From NCBI GenBank assembly GCA_963702005.1, contig OY969696.1, positions 1,632,001-1,696,000 on the forward strand: a DNA stretch of 64,000 bases, given 5' to 3'. Shown piece after piece: positions 36,469 through 41,465 of the stretch. A program made the position numbers and the translations under genes. Source of the stretch: Candidatus Aminicenantes bacterium. GTDB lineage: Bacteria > Acidobacteriota > Aminicenantia > Aminicenantales > JAFGBC01. Below the pieces are notes generated by a model, which was not told the origin of the DNA, ran no database searches, and worked only from the letters and a program-made list of their open reading frames with translations. The stretch's first letter is position 1. Every line of letters begins with the position of its first letter.

Positions 36469-38886
36469 TCACCGAGAGCGGGCCCGGTTTTTCTTCCAGC
36501 GGAGGCGCTGGGCTATCCCCATTAAAATGTAGAGCGGGCCGTATAAGCCGGCCGCGACGGCCGTGGCCCCGATGTTGCCGCCCTGGAGGAGCGAAACCCA
36601 CAGCCCGAACTGCTGGTCGCTGATGAGGTAGGTCCAGGTCGAGGATGGCCCGCGCAGGCCCATTCGGTCCAGGTCGAGCCGGTCCGGATCGGCGGGAAGC
36701 GATCGGAATGATCTCAGGATTCCGGTTTCGATCTTGGGCTCCAGCTTGACGAATTCCTCGTTGGCGATCCTTTGGAATTCGGCGATCGGAGACCGTCCCC
36801 CCACGCTCTCCAGGTGGATGCCCTCGCGGACATAGGCCAGGACGGCCAAGTGCTCCATCCAGGCGCGGTCGATCTCGCGGAGGGCGATCCGCCGCTCGAT
36901 CTCGGCCCAGGCGTCCGGAGTCATCCGTGAGCGATGGCCAGCCCCGATCCGGCGGACTTTGGCCTCCAGCGGATCCGGCAATCCGTCACCGCCCAGGATC
37001 TCCTCGCGCCAGCCCTGGATGATTTGGCGCTGCTTCTCAATAAGGTAGGCGTATTTCCAGAGGGTTTTGCGGATTTCGAAGTTTTGACCCTCGATGATCC
37101 GCTGGCCCCGAGCGATCTCGCGGGCGACCAGGGGATTTTCAAGCGGGCCATTCCGCCGTAGCGAGCGAAGGCTTTTGGGCAGGAGGTTCCGGAGACCGTA
37201 CTTCTCGACGAGCGGATCTTCGAGGCTGACGAAAAAGCGGGACGAACCGGGATCGCCTTGGCGCCCCGCCCGCCCCCGGAGCTGCCGGTCGATCCGCAGG
37301 TTTTCGTGCCGGTTCGTGCCGATGACGTAAAGGCCGCCCCTGCCGACGACCTTGTCCCGCTCCTGCTCTTTGTCTCCGCCGAGTTTAATGTCAGTCCCCC
37401 GGCCGGCCATGTTCGTCGAAATGGTCACGGCGCCGGGGCGGCCCGCCTGGGCGATGATCTCGGCCTCGAGCTCGTCGTTCTTGGCGTTGAGGACCCGGCA
37501 GTCGATGTCTTTCCCCTGCAGGGCGGCCGCCAGCTCCTCGGACTCCTTGATGCTGGCCGTGCCGACCAGGACCGGCCGGCCGACGGCATGCAGGCATCCG
37601 ATCTCCTCGATCAGGGCCTCGGCCTTGGCCGCCTTGTGCGTGAAGACCGCGTCCGGCAGATCCTTCCGGATGCAGGGACGGTGCGGGGGAATGACGACGG
37701 TCCTCAGCCCGTAGAACTCGTGGATCTCGCCGGCGGCGCTTTGCGCGGTTGCGGTCATTCCGCCGACCTTGGGGTAGAGGCGGATGAAGTGCTGAAGGGT
37801 GATCGAGCCCAGGATGGATCCGCCAGCGCCCGGCCCGAGCCGTTCCTTGGCCTCGACCGCGGCCTGGAGGCCGTCGGGCCAGTGGCGGTCTTCGACGACG
37901 CGGCCCGTGAATTCGTCGACGATCTCGGCCTTTCCGTCGCGGACGATATAGTCCACGTCGCGCCGCAGGAGATACTCGGCATGGAGGGCCTGATGAACGC
38001 CGGTCAGGATATCGATGGCCCCGGGCGCGTGGAGGTCCAGACCGCCCAGCCTGCCCTCGATTCTCCCCAAACCCTGGTCGGTCAGGACAAGGTTGCGCTC
38101 CCCTTCGTCCGTCTCGAAGTCGAGGCCGGACCGGAGCCCTTTGACGACCTCGGCCAATCCGACCGGGACGGCCGTCTCCGCCTCCAGCCGGCCGGCGATG
38201 ACGAGCGGGACGCGGGCCTCGTCGATGAGGATGGAATCGGCTTCGTCGACGACCGCGCAATGAAACGGCCTTTGGACGAGGTCGGCCCGGGCGTAGCAGA
38301 GATGATCGCGGAGGTAATCGAAGCCGGCCTCCTTGGCCGTCGCGTAGGTGATGTCCGAAGCGTAAGCCCTTTTCCGGTCCGTCTGAGGCATCCCTTCCTG
38401 TACGCAGCCGACGCTCAGGCCAAGGAATTCGTAGATGGGCCCCATCCAGGCGGCATCCCGGCGGGCCAGGTAATCGTTGAAGGTCAGGATGTGGACCCCT
38501 CGTCCGGTCAGAGCGTTTAGGGCGCCCGGAAAGACCGCGGCCAGCGTTTTACCCTCGCCGGTGTTCATCTCGACGACGCGGCCTTGATGAAGGGCGATCC
38601 CGGCCATGACCTGCTCGTCGAACGGCTTGAGCCCGATTCTCCGCCAGGCCGCTTCCCGGACGAGGCCGAACGCCTCGACCAAGAGAACGTCCGCAGCCTC
38701 GCCTCGGCAGGCCCGCTCCCTCAACCGCGCCGCTCTTTCTTGAAGCTCGCCGTCCGCCGAGCGGCCGAAGTCGAGGCGGCCGATCGCCGCCAGCGTTTTT
38801 CGATAGCCGGCCAGATCATATTGAATGGGAATGCCGCGCGTCCTGTTCCAGAAATCCTTAATCCGGGTCTTGGCGGGTAAAATCAT
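36469..38886 (-). CDS. secA2: Accessory protein translocase ATPase SecA2
   Basis: EMNTGEGKT (Walker A), VDEADSILIDEARVPL, STNMAGRGTDI, QLRGRAGRQGDPG; short (805 aa), no C-terminal Cys Zn motif; SD GGAGAGGAG 5 nt before ATG. Confidence 0.88.
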   Translation of the reverse strand: MILPAKTRIKDFWNRTRGIPIQYDLAGYRKTLAAIGRLDFGRSADGELQERAARLRERACRGEAADVLLVEAFGLVREAAWRRIGLKPFDEQVMAGIALHQGRVVEMNTGEGKTLAAVFPGALNALTGRGVHILTFNDYLARRDAAWMGPIYEFLGLSVGCVQEGMPQTDRKRAYASDITYATAKEAGFDYLRDHLCYARADLVQRPFHCAVVDEADSILIDEARVPLVIAGRLEAETAVPVGLAEVVKGLRSGLDFETDEGERNLVLTDQGLGRIEGRLGGLDLHAPGAIDILTGVHQALHAEYLLRRDVDYIVRDGKAEIVDEFTGRVVEDRHWPDGLQAAVEAKERLGPGAGGSILGSITLQHFIRLYPKVGGMTATAQSAAGEIHEFYGLRTVVIPPHRPCIRKDLPDAVFTHKAAKAEALIEEIGCLHAVGRPVLVGTASIKESEELAAALQGKDIDCRVLNAKNDELEAEIIAQAGRPGAVTISTNMAGRGTDIKLGGDKEQERDKVVGRGGLYVIGTNRHENLRIDRQLRGRAGRQGDPGSSRFFVSLEDPLVEKYGLRNLLPKSLRSLRRNGPLENPLVAREIARGQRIIEGQNFEIRKTLWKYAYLIEKQRQIIQGWREEILGGDGLPDPLEAKVRRIGAGHRSRMTPDAWAEIERRIALREIDRAWMEHLAVLAYVREGIHLESVGGRSPIAEFQRIANEEFVKLEPKIETGILRSFRSLPADPDRLDLDRMGLRGPSSTWTYLISDQQFGLWVSLLQGGNIGATAVAAGLYGPLYILMGIAQRLRWKKNRARSR

Positions 38887-38891
38887 CTTGA

Positions 38892-38960
38892 CTCCTCTCC
38901 GGTTCATAAACCCGATGACGATTCGAACAGACTTCAGGGGAAATAGTTAGAGGAGAGGAG
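38892..38960 (-). promoter_or_regulatory. Anti-SD/SD pairing between leader-ORF 3' end and secA2 RBS
   Basis: mRNA CUCCUCUCC (38960-38952) is the exact complement of SD GGAGAGGAG (38900-38892). Confidence 0.65.
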
Positions 38961-39189
38961 GGCTTCTGGGCGAGGTAGTTCCCAGAACGTATTGCGGGAC
39001 TAAAAAAGAGCGTCGCTTGGATGAAACGGGCGCGCCGGCAAGATTTATGCTAAGAACCCATACCAAAAGCAAGAGCAGGGGAGGGACGATCAGCCCGACG
39101 AGGAACAGAAGCGGCAGCCAGAGGGCCAAGAACCCCCCCCGATCGGGCGCGGTCATTTTCGTCCAAGCCGTCCGGGATGTTTCGATCAT
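38947..39189 (-). CDS. Putative secretion-monitor leader peptide (TM segment + C-terminal RSPP)
   Basis: Hydrophobic stretch at about residues 20-48, ends SPRSPPLL*; co-oriented, 60 nt upstream of secA2. Confidence 0.7.
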   Translation of the reverse strand: MIETSRTAWTKMTAPDRGGFLALWLPLLFLVGLIVPPLLLLLVWVLSINLAGAPVSSKRRSFLVPQYVLGTTSPRSPPLL

Positions 39190-39219
39190 TATTTACGGCG
39201 TTTCCTGCTTCAAGAGGAA

Positions 39220-39248
39220 ATAATAAGCCGCCGCCTCGGCGTTGTCAA
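39220..39248 (-). promoter_or_regulatory. Putative sigma70 promoter for leader ORF-secA2
   Basis: Minus strand TTGACA-17 nt-TATTAT, 30 nt before leader ATG. Confidence 0.55.
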
Positions 39249-39360
39249 TGAACGGGGGAGCCGAGATCTCGTCGCCGCCGCGAAGCCGGAGGCTGAGCCT
39301 CGGTTCCATTTGCGGCGGCCCCGCCTTCCGGGGTATGATCTTCCTGAAAAGGAGGACGCC

Positions 39361-40647
39361 ATGCCCACCCGAAAGCGGCTTCTCGTTTTCATCGCCGTTC
39401 TCACCTTAACTTTCGTTTTGGCCGCCGCGGCGGATTTTCCTCAAGGAAATTCCCGGGAGCTCGGATTCGACCCGGTACGGCTGGGGCGGGTTGACGCCCT
39501 GTTCGAAGGATTCATCGCCCAGGGGAAGCTCTCCGGCGCCGTCGCCCTCGTCTTGAAGGACGGCAAAGCCGTTCTTTATAAATCCTACGGCAAGATGGAC
39601 CGGGAGGCCGGGATTCCCATGCCCAAGGACGCCGTCTTCCGGATCGCCTCTATGTCAAAAGCCCTGACCGCGGCTGCGGTCATGATACTTTACGAGGAGG
39701 GCCGATTCCTCCTCCAGGACCCCGTCGTTAAATTTATCCCGGAATTCGCCGAGCCATCCGTGGCCGTGCCCCTTCCGGTCGGCGTTCAATCCGCGGCCAA
39801 ATACTACCTGGAAAAAGCGCATCGGCCCATGACCATCCATCAGCTTTTGACCCATACCTCGGGCTTAACCTACGGCTACGACATCTCCCAGGACGCTTGG
39901 AAGGAAGCGGGCATCCAGGGCTGGTACCTGGCGGCCCGTAATGAGACCATCGGCGACGTCGTCAAACGGATGGCCAAGCTCCCCCTCGACGGCCACCCCG
40001 GCGAGAAATGGCTCTACGGCTATTCGTCCGACGTCCTGGGATATCTCGTCGAGGTTGCCTCGGGGATGCCGTTCGACCGCTTCTTGGAGGAGCGCCTCTT
40101 TAGGCCGCTCCGGATGACCGACACATCCTTCTGGATGACCAACGGCAAGGCCGCCCGCTTCGCGCCCGTCTACGGCCTTTCCCCGGAGGGCGTCCTGACC
40201 AAGAACGAGGACAACGCCAAGACCGATTACCTCAAAGGCCCCAAGAAGTGTCTCTCGGGGGGAGCCGGGATCCTGTCGACGGCCGTCGATTACGGCCGAT
40301 TCCTCCAGATGCTCCTTAACGGCGGGGTCCTCGACGGCGTCCGCGTCCTCAGCCCCAAGTCGGTGGAGCTCATGCATGTCAACGCGACACGCGACCTCTA
40401 CCGCCGCGACGGCTGGGGACGGGGGGAGACCTTCGGATTGGGCTTCTGGGTCAGGGAGGATATCGGGACCTACGGCGAGCTCGGCTCGAAAGGAGCCTTC
40501 GGCTGGGGGTCGGCCTATTATCCCATCTACTGGGTCGATCCCGAGCAAAGGCTGGTCGGCCTGTTCATGACGCAGCTCATGCCGGCCGCGGATCTTCCCC
40601 TCAGCCGGCAGTTCCCGGTCATGGTCTACCAGGCCCTGGTCCGCTGA
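39361..40647 (+). CDS. Serine hydrolase, beta-lactamase family (EstB/esterase-like)
   Basis: FRIASMSK, LLTHTSGL, PGEKWLYG, SGGAGILST, FGWGS. Confidence 0.9.
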   Translation: MPTRKRLLVFIAVLTLTFVLAAAADFPQGNSRELGFDPVRLGRVDALFEGFIAQGKLSGAVALVLKDGKAVLYKSYGKMDREAGIPMPKDAVFRIASMSKALTAAAVMILYEEGRFLLQDPVVKFIPEFAEPSVAVPLPVGVQSAAKYYLEKAHRPMTIHQLLTHTSGLTYGYDISQDAWKEAGIQGWYLAARNETIGDVVKRMAKLPLDGHPGEKWLYGYSSDVLGYLVEVASGMPFDRFLEERLFRPLRMTDTSFWMTNGKAARFAPVYGLSPEGVLTKNEDNAKTDYLKGPKKCLSGGAGILSTAVDYGRFLQMLLNGGVLDGVRVLSPKSVELMHVNATRDLYRRDGWGRGETFGLGFWVREDIGTYGELGSKGAFGWGSAYYPIYWVDPEQRLVGLFMTQLMPAADLPLSRQFPVMVYQALVR

Positions 40648-40685
40648 TGATGGGCCGGAATGTTCCAAATTCAAAGGGGGTTCCG

Positions 40686-41465
40686 ATGACCTTTGACCTC
40701 AAAAAGTGTTCATGGGTTCTGATCTTTCTGGCCTTCGTCTCATGGGGCCGCGCTTTCGCGCAGGCCGCCGCGGAGATCCCCGATGATCAGGCGAAGGAAC
40801 GGTTGGGCTATATCGAGAACGCCCTCGGCACGGCCCAGCCGCGCGCCAGAACCTGGTGGTACGGTTGGCTGGCCGGCTATGCGACCGCGACCGCGGCGCA
40901 GTGGGGCCTTTCCGCCGCCCATTGGAACGACGTCAAGCCGGCCGATGATTCGCCGAATGCTCCCAAAGTCCGCGACCGCGAGTTCGCCCAGGATATGCTC
41001 GTGGGCGGGGCGACCACGGCCCTCGGCGTCGGCGGCCTGTTGATGGACTCCTTCCTGCCGGCTTACGGCGTCAAAAAATTGAAATCCTTTCCGGACGGCA
41101 CGCCCGAAGAGCGCCGAGTCAAGCTCGCTGAGGCCGAGGAGCTTCTTCGCCGCTGCGCCGAGCGGGAGAAAGCGGGGCGAGGCTGGACCACCCATCTCCT
41201 CAACCTAGGCGCCAACGCGGCGGCCGGGATCGTGACCGCGGCCGCCTTCAAACGGCCTTGGAGCGACGGGCTTATCACCTTCGCCATCGGAGAAGCCGTC
41301 TCCCTGGCCAATATCTTCATCCAGCCGCGCCGGGCGATCCGCGATTGGAATAATTATCAAGTCCGCTACCTGGGCAAGGAAGGAGCGCTCCTTCCCGCGC
41401 CCGCCGAAAGCCGCTGGTCGCTCAGCGTCTTTCCGGGCGGGCTGAGCCTCTCCCTTCAATTTTAA
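40686..41465 (+). CDS. Exported/membrane hypothetical protein
   Basis: Signal peptide, hydrophobic Gly/Ala helices, C-terminal GLSLSLQF. Confidence 0.7.
   Translation: MTFDLKKCSWVLIFLAFVSWGRAFAQAAAEIPDDQAKERLGYIENALGTAQPRARTWWYGWLAGYATATAAQWGLSAAHWNDVKPADDSPNAPKVRDREFAQDMLVGGATTALGVGGLLMDSFLPAYGVKKLKSFPDGTPEERRVKLAEAEELLRRCAEREKAGRGWTTHLLNLGANAAAGIVTAAAFKRPWSDGLITFAIGEAVSLANIFIQPRRAIRDWNNYQVRYLGKEGALLPAPAESRWSLSVFPGGLSLSLQF

Follow-up and report, generated by a model that had tools for sequence, protein, structure and literature searches.

We report an 80-amino acid (aa) open reading frame (ORF) directly upstream of an accessory secA2 gene, which we consider likely to be a RAPP-like translation-arrest leader that would control secA2 translation and induce it when membrane insertion or secretion falters. 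The leader belongs to a peptide family spanning 7 families of the order Aminicenantales, the order that we take to correspond to "Candidatus Aminicenantes."

The window (i.e., the whole stretch of DNA analyzed, 64,000 nt) carries on its minus strand the layout described in the initial annotation: a promoter-like site, an 80-aa upstream ORF (uORF) ending in RSPPLL-stop, a spacer of 60 nt between the leader stop and the secA2 ATG (38886), and then secA2. The features are listed below in the order in which they would be transcribed, with those internal to an ORF placed after it.

39220 to 39248, minus strand: sigma-70-type promoter-like site TTGACA-17-TATTAT, 11/12 matches, directly 5' of the leader ORF.
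38947 to 39189, minus strand: leader ORF (uORF), 80 aa plus stop, with a short N-terminal tail, one long hydrophobic segment, a linker of ~25 aa, RSPP, two Leu, and the stop.
39043 to 39129, minus strand: hydrophobic (transmembrane-like) segment assigned by hydropathy, residues 21 to 49, holding the family-invariant Pro36 (39082-39084).
38956 to 38967, minus strand: candidate arrest motif Arg75-Ser76-Pro77-Pro78, with R, P, and P invariant in 48/48 peptides.
38952 to 38960, minus strand: anti-Shine-Dalgarno (anti-SD) sequence CUCCUCUCC, within the Pro77-Pro78-Leu79-Leu80 codons (second base of Pro77 to first base of Leu80).
38892 to 38900, minus strand: Shine-Dalgarno (SD) sequence of secA2, GGAGAGGAG, 5 nt before ATG 38886.
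36469 to 38886, minus strand: secA2, accessory SecA paralogue (TIGR04221), 805 aa plus stop.
36472 to 36606, minus strand: conserved SecA2 tail, the last ~45 residues, hydrophobic and Gly-rich with a basic end.

The promoter-like site is the sole one within 38500-39700, where shuffled sequences lead one to expect 0.2. A comparable TTGACN-17/18-TAnnnT is found at a matching distance 5' of the uORF in 43/48 loci, with at least 10/12 matches in 38 of these, and we propose on this basis that leader and secA2 share a promoter of their own. A same-genus genome keeps the secA2 start codon at ATG 38886 only, having none at the upstream ATG 38907. Since the internal Met12 of the leader is unconserved in the same-genus genome, the leader's first ATG is the conserved start. 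The leader ORF is small, co-oriented with secA2, and directly 5' of it, an arrangement that is one of the Fujiwara 2024 criteria.

The downstream product is readily recognized as SecA2. It scores 807.3 bits against NCBIfam TIGR04221 (accessory SecA2; cutoff 725), contains SecA Pfam domains, and has the SecA2 chains 6t4h, 6sxh, and 4uaq as its nearest solved relatives. A separate canonical secA, 48% identical and lying in a 944-aa frame, is present in the same genome (G000:C1:2541574-2543991). The SecA2 tail is kept in all 34 complete orthologues listed.

Leader and secA2 occur together. SecA2-type matches were found in 52 of the 121 Aminicenantales genomes, and a leader profile (A1) matched 50 of the 121, with one strong match each. 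These 50 are 49 of the 52 secA2-bearing genomes plus G106, where the uORF is followed by a frameshifted secA2; the other 68 genomes gave no match. A frameshifted leader remnant ending in LRGPPA precedes secA2 in G016, while in G102 and G063 the uORF match and a 5'-truncated secA2 are on different contigs. The initial annotation had proposed looking upstream of homologous secA2 genes for uORFs combining a transmembrane (TM) segment with an R-[A/S/G]-P-P motif. Conserved uORFs of this type, with S, G, A, or D as the second residue, are indeed present in almost all genomes of the order that carry secA2. Scripted examination of orthologous loci found uORF homologues 5' of secA2 in 28/29 and 16/18 of them. 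Loci L063 and L148 have no uORF, and in L161, where the piece examined lacks the SecA2 N terminus, the profile later matched a uORF inside that piece. Outside the order, no R-x-P-P uORF was found at the SecA2-like loci L071, L073-L077, and L117, nor at the more distant L090, L132, and L143. When a 301-genome sample of the phylum was searched with the profile, there were just five weak matches outside the order; the three inspected (L169, L170, and L173) are spurious, with no secA2 nearby.

The family is not easily found from one member. A single-sequence search with the 80-aa peptide returned 1 clear homologue in 60 relatives and 3 database clusters, and homologues were collected by anchoring on secA2 loci and then with profile A1. 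No NCBIfam family matches the leader peptide at E ≤ 0.1, its homologues have no precomputed Pfam domain, and its database members are named only "hypothetical protein." A search of 38700-39400 against Rfam gave no match at E ≤ 1.

Among 48 distinct peptides, with a mean column identity of 30%, the only invariant residues are Pro36, Arg75, Pro77, and Pro78. Position x of R-x-P-P is occupied by S in 33 of these peptides, G in 8, A in 6, and D in 1. The same picture was seen in a search of 1.84 billion database representatives, where R[SGAD]PP lies at most 8 residues from the C terminus in 78/78 matches (S 45, G 22, A 10, and D 1 at position x). S, G, A, and D are the arrest-permissive set reported for this position in the RAPP peptides ApdA/ApdP (PMC12992588). 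RSPP placed in ApdA/ApdP reportedly supports arrest only partially, and since RSPP is the majority form in our family, we count this against an arrest leader. The motif codons vary synonymously, Arg being written with five codons and each Pro with four, and the invariance of the amino acids despite this turnover supports selection on the motif at the protein level. By analogy with the ApdA/ApdP structures, the stalled ribosome would be expected to have Pro77 at its P site while Pro78-tRNA occupies the A site. The combination of features is also rare: among the 21,551 six-frame ORFs of 40 to 160 aa that the 4.3-Mb genome contains, 55 have R[AGSD]PP at most 10 residues from their end, and the leader is the only one of the 55 that also has a strongly hydrophobic 19-mer (Kyte-Doolittle [KD] ≥ 2.0).

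The top KD 19-mer reaches 2.83 in the window leader and at least 2.24 in 48/48 peptides, each of which has, judged by hydropathy only, a single hydrophobic run of 26 to 44 residues (median 32). Pro36 is invariant in the 48 peptides of alignment A1 and is P in 76/78 database representatives. The initial annotation had put 27 to 30 residues between the TM segment and RSPP, which was borne out: the run ends 29 residues before the P-site Pro77. The family median for this distance is 25 residues (interquartile range 23 to 25). Measured in this way the spacer is shorter than the >30 residues that Fujiwara 2024 asks for from the localization signal to the motif's end, which we also count against an arrest leader, although its length varies with the end that a predictor assigns to the TM helix and comes to 41 to 43 residues when taken from the mid-segment Pro. 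That mid-membrane Pro precedes the P-site Pro by 41 residues in 34 peptides, 42 in 5, and 43 in 9 (n = 48), even though the linker sequence itself is unconserved. Such fixed spacing between TM segment and motif would speak for force coupling of arrest release. Its topology does not follow from the charges within 15 aa on either side of the segment, which are +0.9 for the N flank and +1.3 for the C flank.

Since the hydrophobic segment, with its invariant Pro and F-P-P-L-L-like core, is conserved beyond targeting needs, the peptide may serve some purpose in its own right as well. This opens another explanation, in which secA2 would simply be translationally coupled, constitutively, to a small, stable membrane protein (e.g., a partner of the membrane-associated SecA2 tail). 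The anti-SD at the 3' end of the leader would then do no more than tie secA2 translation to that of the leader, and the Pro-Pro pause beside the stop codon would prolong the open state while sensing nothing. Several observations suit such coupling: the core is conserved beyond mere hydrophobicity (Pro36 invariant and Leu38 >90%), the peptide lengths cluster tightly at 61 aa (11/48) and 78 aa (18/48), and the conserved hydrophobic SecA2 tail could meet such a partner. Coupling leaves unexplained, however, why R-x-P-P (x = S/G/A/D) should be invariant at the extreme C terminus amid variable neighbors and why its distance to the membrane segment should be fixed. Moreover, tail-bearing SecA2 relatives outside the order (L073, L074, L075, L077, and L117) have no leader peptide, and the leader is therefore not an obligatory SecA2 subunit. 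We judge constitutive coupling unlikely, and proceed with the arrest leader as the preferred reading.

How might a stalled ribosome affect secA2? A 9-nt complementarity between the end of the leader ORF and the secA2 SD had been noted initially, and it is exact, CUCCUCUCC being the perfect reverse complement of GGAGAGGAG. The interpretation built on it is supported, with some caveats. In a fold of 38870-38990, SD and anti-SD pair in both the minimum free energy and the centroid structures, but the stability is ordinary (z = -1.1, with 29/200 shuffles as good). Likewise, a CCUCC lies near the motif in 39/47 loci, beginning at 0 or +12/+15 relative to the first Pro codon, but its placement in Pro-Pro-Leu-Leu codons is limited to this genome and some relatives. 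(Locus L065, with a run of N in the spacer, was left out of the RNA counts, hence n = 47.) CCUCC is found in the Pro-Pro codons only in 18 loci, just after the stop only in 15, in both places in 6, and near the motif not at all in 8. Where the Pro-Pro codons are written CCG/CCC, the anti-SD is found directly after the stop codon instead. These post-stop copies (+12/+15) also suit constitutive coupling, because a terminating ribosome would be no worse than a stalled one at opening the stem.

The ordinary stability of the local fold would also suit an ORF that arose by chance, its 9-nt complementarity being equally fortuitous in a spacer rich in GC and pyrimidines, all the more so as CCUCC-like words are common in a 60% GC genome and the same word recurs in the hydrophobic region of the uORF. 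We give chance next to no credence and rejected it, since it is contradicted by the invariance of the motif, by conservation over 7 families with synonymous turnover, by motif-terminated sequences in all 78 database clusters, by strict co-occurrence with secA2, and by a combination of features unique among the genome's small ORFs.

Modeling across loci points to the arrest leader acting through this pairing. The median duplex energy with the SD region is -15.6 kcal/mol for the true anti-SD window, whereas two further uORF windows and shuffles give -11.6, -11.3, and -11.4, and the true window scores best in 37/47 loci. A median of 99% of the modeled SD pairing is directed to -3..+26 around the first Pro codon (94% in the window). 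The median probability that the SD is unpaired is 0.03 in free RNA, 0.21 with the footprint of a stalled ribosome, 0.02 when the ribosome is placed 36 nt upstream, and 0.16 after shuffling of the anti-SD segment. In silico, then, the downstream SD is predicted to be sequestered in a structure that a motif-stalled ribosome would disrupt. The predicted unmasking is modest. The SD is more than 0.5 unpaired under the footprint in only 1/47 loci, often taking other pyrimidine-rich partners, and it is poorly masked in L038, L039, and L072 (0.40 to 0.50 unpaired). In our window, the SD is unpaired with a probability of 0.13 in free RNA, 0.21 under the stalled ribosome, and 0.20 once the segment is shuffled, which amounts to weak modeled unmasking. 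A fold of the whole leader (38860-39230) is no stabler than shuffles (z = +0.32), and we therefore restrict the structural claim to the anti-SD/SD stem.

That the putative stall site overlaps the anti-SD would also be expected if the leader sensed polyproline translation capacity (EF-P activity or prolyl-tRNA supply) rather than membrane traffic, with a slow Pro-Pro bond setting secA2 expression, and Pro-Pro is the classic EF-P-dependent dipeptide. Such a sensor has no role for the invariant Arg or for the conserved, precisely spaced hydrophobic segment, and it leaves the exclusive linkage to a Sec paralogue unexplained, on which grounds we rejected it as very improbable.

The arrest leader that we favor would work as follows. 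In free mRNA, the secA2 SD would be paired with a CCUCC-type anti-SD within the Pro-Pro codons or no more than ~15 nt 3' of them. During translation, the hydrophobic segment would leave the ribosome while the ribosome arrives at Arg-Ser-Pro-Pro, where bond formation between P-site peptidyl-...Arg-Ser-Pro-tRNA and A-site Pro-tRNA would be slowed or prevented, as happens in ApdA, ApdP, and SecM. A ribosome parked on the motif would cover the anti-SD, freeing the SD so that SecA2 is made. Arrest is probably released by membrane insertion: prompt insertion of the nascent hydrophobic segment would pull on the chain and end the arrest, translation would terminate one to three codons further on, the stem would re-form, and secA2 expression would stay low. 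If MifM-YidC2 and VemP-SecDF2 are a guide, the leader would probably report primary insertion/secretion capacity and induce a back-up paralogue. More tentatively, and with rather more doubt than confidence, we suggest an order-wide monitor for a membrane-tethered SecA2 that couples RAPP-type arrest to a MifM-like geometry of one N-terminal membrane segment set at a constant 41 to 43 residues, senses YidC/SecYEG insertion capacity, and turns on a back-up SecA paralogue, with the Pro-Pro codons doubling as anti-SD and a post-stop CCUCC being selected when the Pro codons drift.

Arrest-peptide monitors are the main known route of bacterial feedback on the protein-localization machinery, and the regulation and purpose of accessory SecA2 are poorly understood outside Gram-positive pathogens. 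If the SecA2-monitor reading is true, it would be the first time that control by an arrest peptide is described for a SecA2 system, and the design would be a hybrid between "Sec-type" and "YidC-type" monitors. The family offers a testable handle on when uncultivated Aminicenantes deploy SecA2, and its 48 + 78 natural RSPP/RGPP/RAPP/RDPP variants with fixed membrane-segment spacing would be useful for studies of force-sensitive arrest. It also illustrates dual coding in evolution, with Pro-Pro codons serving as anti-SD and a compensating element appearing after the stop.

The initial annotation knew of no described monitor for this SecA2 clade, which agrees with our searches of main texts: these retrieved no publication that connects SecA2 or Aminicenantes with an arrest peptide. 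Apparent mentions of "SecA2" in the main texts of PMC10987492 and PMC10951299 turn out to be "secA" with superscript citation numbers attached. "Aminicenant" and "Acidobacteriota" do not occur in the main text of PMC10987492, which names only Pseudomonadales, Myxococcales, Bacteroidales, Desulfurobacteriales, and Fimbriimonadales among its uA groups; all 19 groups are listed in its Supplementary Fig. 1a. The leader group may already be listed in those supplements (Supplementary Fig. 1a, Data 2-4), in which case the value of our findings would lie in confirmatory detail rather than discovery.

How does the Aminicenantales leader compare to known systems? Among the closest is the RQH family of RAPP-like arrest peptides 5' of secA/secDF (uA_RQH_*, uDF_RQH_*; Fujiwara et al. 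2024, PMC10987492), as described in the main text: a small unannotated uORF directly 5' of a SecA homologue on the same strand, which has a membrane/targeting segment at its N terminus and, at its C terminus, an R-x-P-P that a single bacterial order conserves. The query motifs of that study included RSPP, and it also shows, for uDF_RQH_Enterobacterales, an SD-sequestering stem opened by the stalled ribosome. Compared with the RQH peptides described there, the Aminicenantales leader would regulate an accessory SecA2 rather than housekeeping secA, has RSPP as its majority motif, and has a short, nearly invariant spacer, whereas uA/uDF spacers are typically longer and variable.

With ApdA/ApdP, found 5' of secDF in Actinobacteriota and Alphaproteobacteria, the family shares the R-A-P-P core at which arrest occurs with P-site peptidyl-RAP-tRNA and A-site Pro-tRNA; exact RAPP is present in 6/48 leaders and RGPP in 8/48. 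Phylum and downstream gene differ, and our searches indicate no similarity in sequence beyond the motif. In SecM-SecA of Enterobacteria, SecM is a 170-aa protein with a cleavable signal peptide, a long spacer (medians 131.5 and 71), and RAGP, acting on the essential SecA, while the Aminicenantales leader has a membrane-type segment, 61 to 80 aa, and RSPP, and precedes a non-essential paralogue. We rejected membership in the SecM family because no NCBIfam family matched at E ≤ 0.1, the motif is RSPP and not ...GIRAGP, and the N-terminal segment is long and of membrane type. MifM-YidC2 (Bacillus) and VemP-SecDF2 (Vibrio) share the plan of a monitoring leader that induces a back-up paralogue of a localization factor, but they arrest on unrelated sequences that are not of RAPP type and regulate other genes. 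MifM, which has one membrane segment at its N terminus and a spacer that is short and varies little (median 54), comes nearest in geometry to the Aminicenantales family.

The leader lies on the minus strand of the window, where the elements follow one another in the order promoter-like site, leader ORF, 60-nt spacer, and secA2. The initial annotation had read this arrangement as a candidate RSPP secretion monitor gating SecA2 via an anti-Shine-Dalgarno (anti-SD) switch, and every detail of its sequence observation was borne out: the promoter-like site, the ORF, the spacer, the SD of secA2, and its 9-nt complement. CUCCUCUCC also pairs with the SD in both the MFE and centroid folds of the window locus.

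Features of the leader-secA2 locus in the window
39248..39220, minus strand: promoter-like TTGACA-17-TATTAT (11/12 matches), the sole such site within 38500-39700
39189..38947, minus strand: leader ORF of 80 codons, with a short N-tail, a hydrophobic run, a linker, and Arg75-Ser76-Pro77-Pro78-Leu-Leu-stop
Leader residues 21-49, minus strand: hydrophobic run (29 residues)
38960-38952, minus strand: anti-SD CUCCUCUCC within the Pro-Pro-Leu-Leu codons, exact complement of the SD
Between leader and secA2, minus strand: spacer of 60 nt
ATG at 38886, minus strand: secA2, 805 codons, with the SD GGAGAGGAG at 38900-38892 before the ATG
39310-40647, plus strand: beta-lactamase-fold protein
40647-41465, plus strand: 272-aa protein with no Pfam match

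These last two genes (39310-41465) separate a GH123-family glycosidase gene from the leader in the window; in a genome of the same genus (locus L006), the glycosidase gene lies directly upstream of the leader on the same strand. The leader is unique in its genome: of 21,551 small six-frame ORFs, no other has both a strongly hydrophobic segment and an R[AGSD]PP close to its end.

The downstream gene encodes an accessory SecA2. The protein contains the SecA Pfam domains and scores 807 bits against NCBIfam TIGR04221 (curated cutoff 725), its closest solved structures are SecA2 chains, and a canonical secA is also encoded elsewhere on the single 4.3-Mb contig. The closest public record that bears a name comes from a MAG labelled "Candidatus Aminicenantes bacterium" (85% SecA2 identity), and more distant records carry the labels Aminicenantes or Acidobacteriota. 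Past the TIGR04221 model, the C terminus bears a conserved extension of ~45 residues (36472-36606, minus strand), in which a conserved polar motif is followed by a Gly/Ala-rich hydrophobic stretch and a Lys/Arg-rich end. This tail, which looks like a membrane-association element (hairpin or monotopic) and is seen at loci L035-L063, is kept in 34/34 complete orthologues compared and also occurs in leader-less relatives outside the order (L073, L074, L075, L077, and L117).

The initial annotation had proposed inspecting the regions upstream of homologous secA2 genes for similar uORFs, and these were found. Of the 121 genomes sampled from the order, which we take to be Aminicenantales in GTDB, 52 have SecA2-type matches (53-86% identity over full length, clearly apart from SecA1 matches at ~48%). 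In 28 of the 29 secA2 loci inspected from the genome search, and in 16 of 18 fetched additionally, the gene is preceded by a small ORF in the same orientation that has a single hydrophobic segment and carries R-x-P-P at its C terminus. Three other sequences, each distinct and from a named MAG, completed a set of 48 different leader peptides, which we aligned and turned into a profile (A1). The profile finds a single strong match in each of 50/121 genomes of the order, namely 49 of the 52 SecA2 genomes (in G102 and G063, leader and secA2 sit on different contigs and are putatively adjacent) and G106, where the uORF is followed by a frameshifted secA2; there is no match in the remaining 68. Among the SecA2 genomes lacking a match, G016 has a frameshifted leader remnant retaining the end LRGPPA, while G087 and G069 have no leader. 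The secA2 matches of G106 (L162, G106:C5:1735200-1738400) and G016 (L163, G016:C10:64600-66200) are split over several frames, as is the leader reading frame in G016; these splits could reflect pseudogenisation or assembly indel errors.

Outside the order, no uORF was found upstream of secA2 in the tail-bearing relatives, and in a 301-genome sample of the phylum strong A1 matches were confined to genomes of the same order. Searching 1.84 billion cluster representatives with A1 returned 78 proteins of 60-145 aa; the 10 matched clusters that we looked up are named "hypothetical protein" only. Unrelated ORFs were seen upstream of secA matches in Terriglobia/Acidobacteriota MAGs (L079, L080, and L087) and a Bryobacterales MAG (L094). 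Each has a signal-like segment at the N terminus and ends in RAPP and 4-6 further residues; the pre-motif sequence is conserved among L079, L080, and L087. They look like a RAPP-type leader family of their own, preceding secA in other Acidobacteriota.

What is conserved in the leader is its motif and its geometry. A1 columns average 30% identity; the congener's peptide is 63% identical to that of the window and all others 14-34%. No variation occurs in four columns, Arg75, Pro77, Pro78, and Pro36, the last in the middle of the hydrophobic run. Five codons are used for the motif Arg and four for each Pro, so selection acts at the peptide level. At the second motif position, Ser occurs in 33, Gly in 8, Ala in 6, and Asp in 1 of the 48 peptides (45, 22, 10, and 1, respectively, in the 78 database representatives), and the motif lies at most 8 residues from the C terminus in 78/78 representatives and 1-3 residues from it in 76. 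In ApdA/ApdP, replacing the Ala of RAPP by Gly gives full or enhanced arrest, and Ser, Asp, or Pro give partial arrest; bacterial proteomes are depleted of RSPP and RDPP (PMC12992588). The natural variation of the leader, confined to Ser, Gly, Ala, and Asp, thus agrees with the residues found permissive by experiment.

The invariant mid-segment Pro precedes the P-site Pro by 41 (34 peptides), 42 (5), or 43 (9) residues (n = 48), across a linker whose sequence is not conserved. A fixed ruler of this kind, set between membrane segment and stall site, is in our view what force-coupled arrest would be expected to leave, and it is hard to explain otherwise. A1 also contains two length classes: 11 sequences of 61 aa, whose N-tail has 3-5 residues, and 18 of 78 aa, with an N-tail of ~17-20; this distance is equal in both. 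The charges on either side of the segment leave the topology unfixed: +0.9 in the N flank, and in the C flank +1.3 when 15 residues are counted or +2.9 for the linker as a whole.

For the RNA switch, we examined anti-SD placement instead of covariation because the SD core must match 16S rRNA and cannot covary. In 39 of 47 loci, a CCUCC starts at the first Pro codon (CCU CCN) or at +12/+15, directly past the stop: 18 loci have it at the Pro codons only, 15 past the stop only, 6 at both, and 8 at neither. Several of the latter show other complementarity on inspection, such as CCUCUG versus CAGAGG in L070. The positional histogram of CCUCC peaks at 0-19 nt (46/102 occurrences). Duplex energy between the 33-nt motif window and the SD region has a median of -15.6 kcal/mol, compared to -11.6 and -11.3 for two other uORF windows and -11.4 for shuffles, and the motif window is the strongest of the three in 37/47 loci. 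We give no weight to Wilcoxon P values for folding and duplexes, which overstate independence because the loci are related.

In partition-function folds of free mRNA, the SD has a median unpaired probability of 0.03, with a median 99% of its pairing within -3..+26 of the first Pro codon. Since a ribosome footprint (-12..+15) forced at the motif brings this probability to 0.21, and shuffling the anti-SD segment to 0.16, the modelled effect of a stall would equal that of anti-SD removal, with modest absolute unmasking; the same footprint placed 36 nt upstream gives 0.02. Other pyrimidine tracts can replace the anti-SD as SD partner in the models. At the window locus, the modelled change with a stalled ribosome is small (0.13 to 0.21), and neither the local anti-SD/SD fold by itself (z = -1.1) nor the whole-leader fold (z = +0.32) is statistically remarkable. 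A TTGACN-17/18-TAnnnT promoter-like site is present in 43/48 loci at a distance that tracks uORF length, which indicates that leader and secA2 form a putative self-contained transcription unit.

The leader is thus real, and its interpretation as an arrest leader, put forward in the initial annotation, is well supported by comparative sequence evidence, with the steps of the mechanism predicted. Known RAPP-type arrest is EF-P-resistant. With the geometry of known arrest peptides, Pro77 would occupy the P site at the stall, so that the anti-SD (+1 to +9 from the Pro77 codon) would sit inside the stalled ribosome and the SD, ~60 nt downstream, would remain clear of it. Assuming that the exit tunnel accommodates roughly 30-40 residues, ~20-30 residues of the hydrophobic run would have emerged from it by then. 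Membrane insertion could then pull on the nascent chain and end the arrest, the released ribosome terminating 1-3 codons later. By analogy with MifM-YidC2 and VemP-SecDF2, we favour a leader that would monitor the primary pathway and induce SecA2 as a back-up; autoregulation by SecA2 itself would fit the data equally well.

A back-up SecA2 under an arrest leader would follow a well-known design, which the leader shares with SecM, ApdA/ApdP, and the "RQH family" defined by Fujiwara et al. 2024 (PMC10987492). There, uORFs of BLAST-defined SecA, SecDF, or YidC homologues were sought across 30,175 annotated genomes of GTDB r202, with RSPP among the query motifs. The method required the small ORF to be annotated by NCBI and a spacer of >30 residues, and could in principle have caught SecA2 paralogues. 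The main text of the study describes no Aminicenantes or Acidobacteriota group (the full list of 19 groups sits in the supplements) and never mentions SecA2. Apparent "SecA2" hits there were rejected, being "secA" followed by reference superscripts. Our literature search found no paper linking an arrest peptide to SecA2 or to Aminicenantes, and the leader is new, or at least not visibly described, in main texts. It departs from the published groups in several ways: it precedes the gene of an accessory SecA2 whose hydrophobic C-terminal tail is conserved, RSPP is the predominant motif, peptide length is small (61-80 aa), and the Pro-Pro codons also serve as the anti-SD. Its short, nearly invariant spacer resembles the YidC-monitor class more than the long, variable spacers reported for secA/secDF leaders. 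While another RAPP-like leader would not surprise a specialist, the points of note are SecA2 as the target, a ruler fixed at 41-43 residues, and the compensating placement of the anti-SD.
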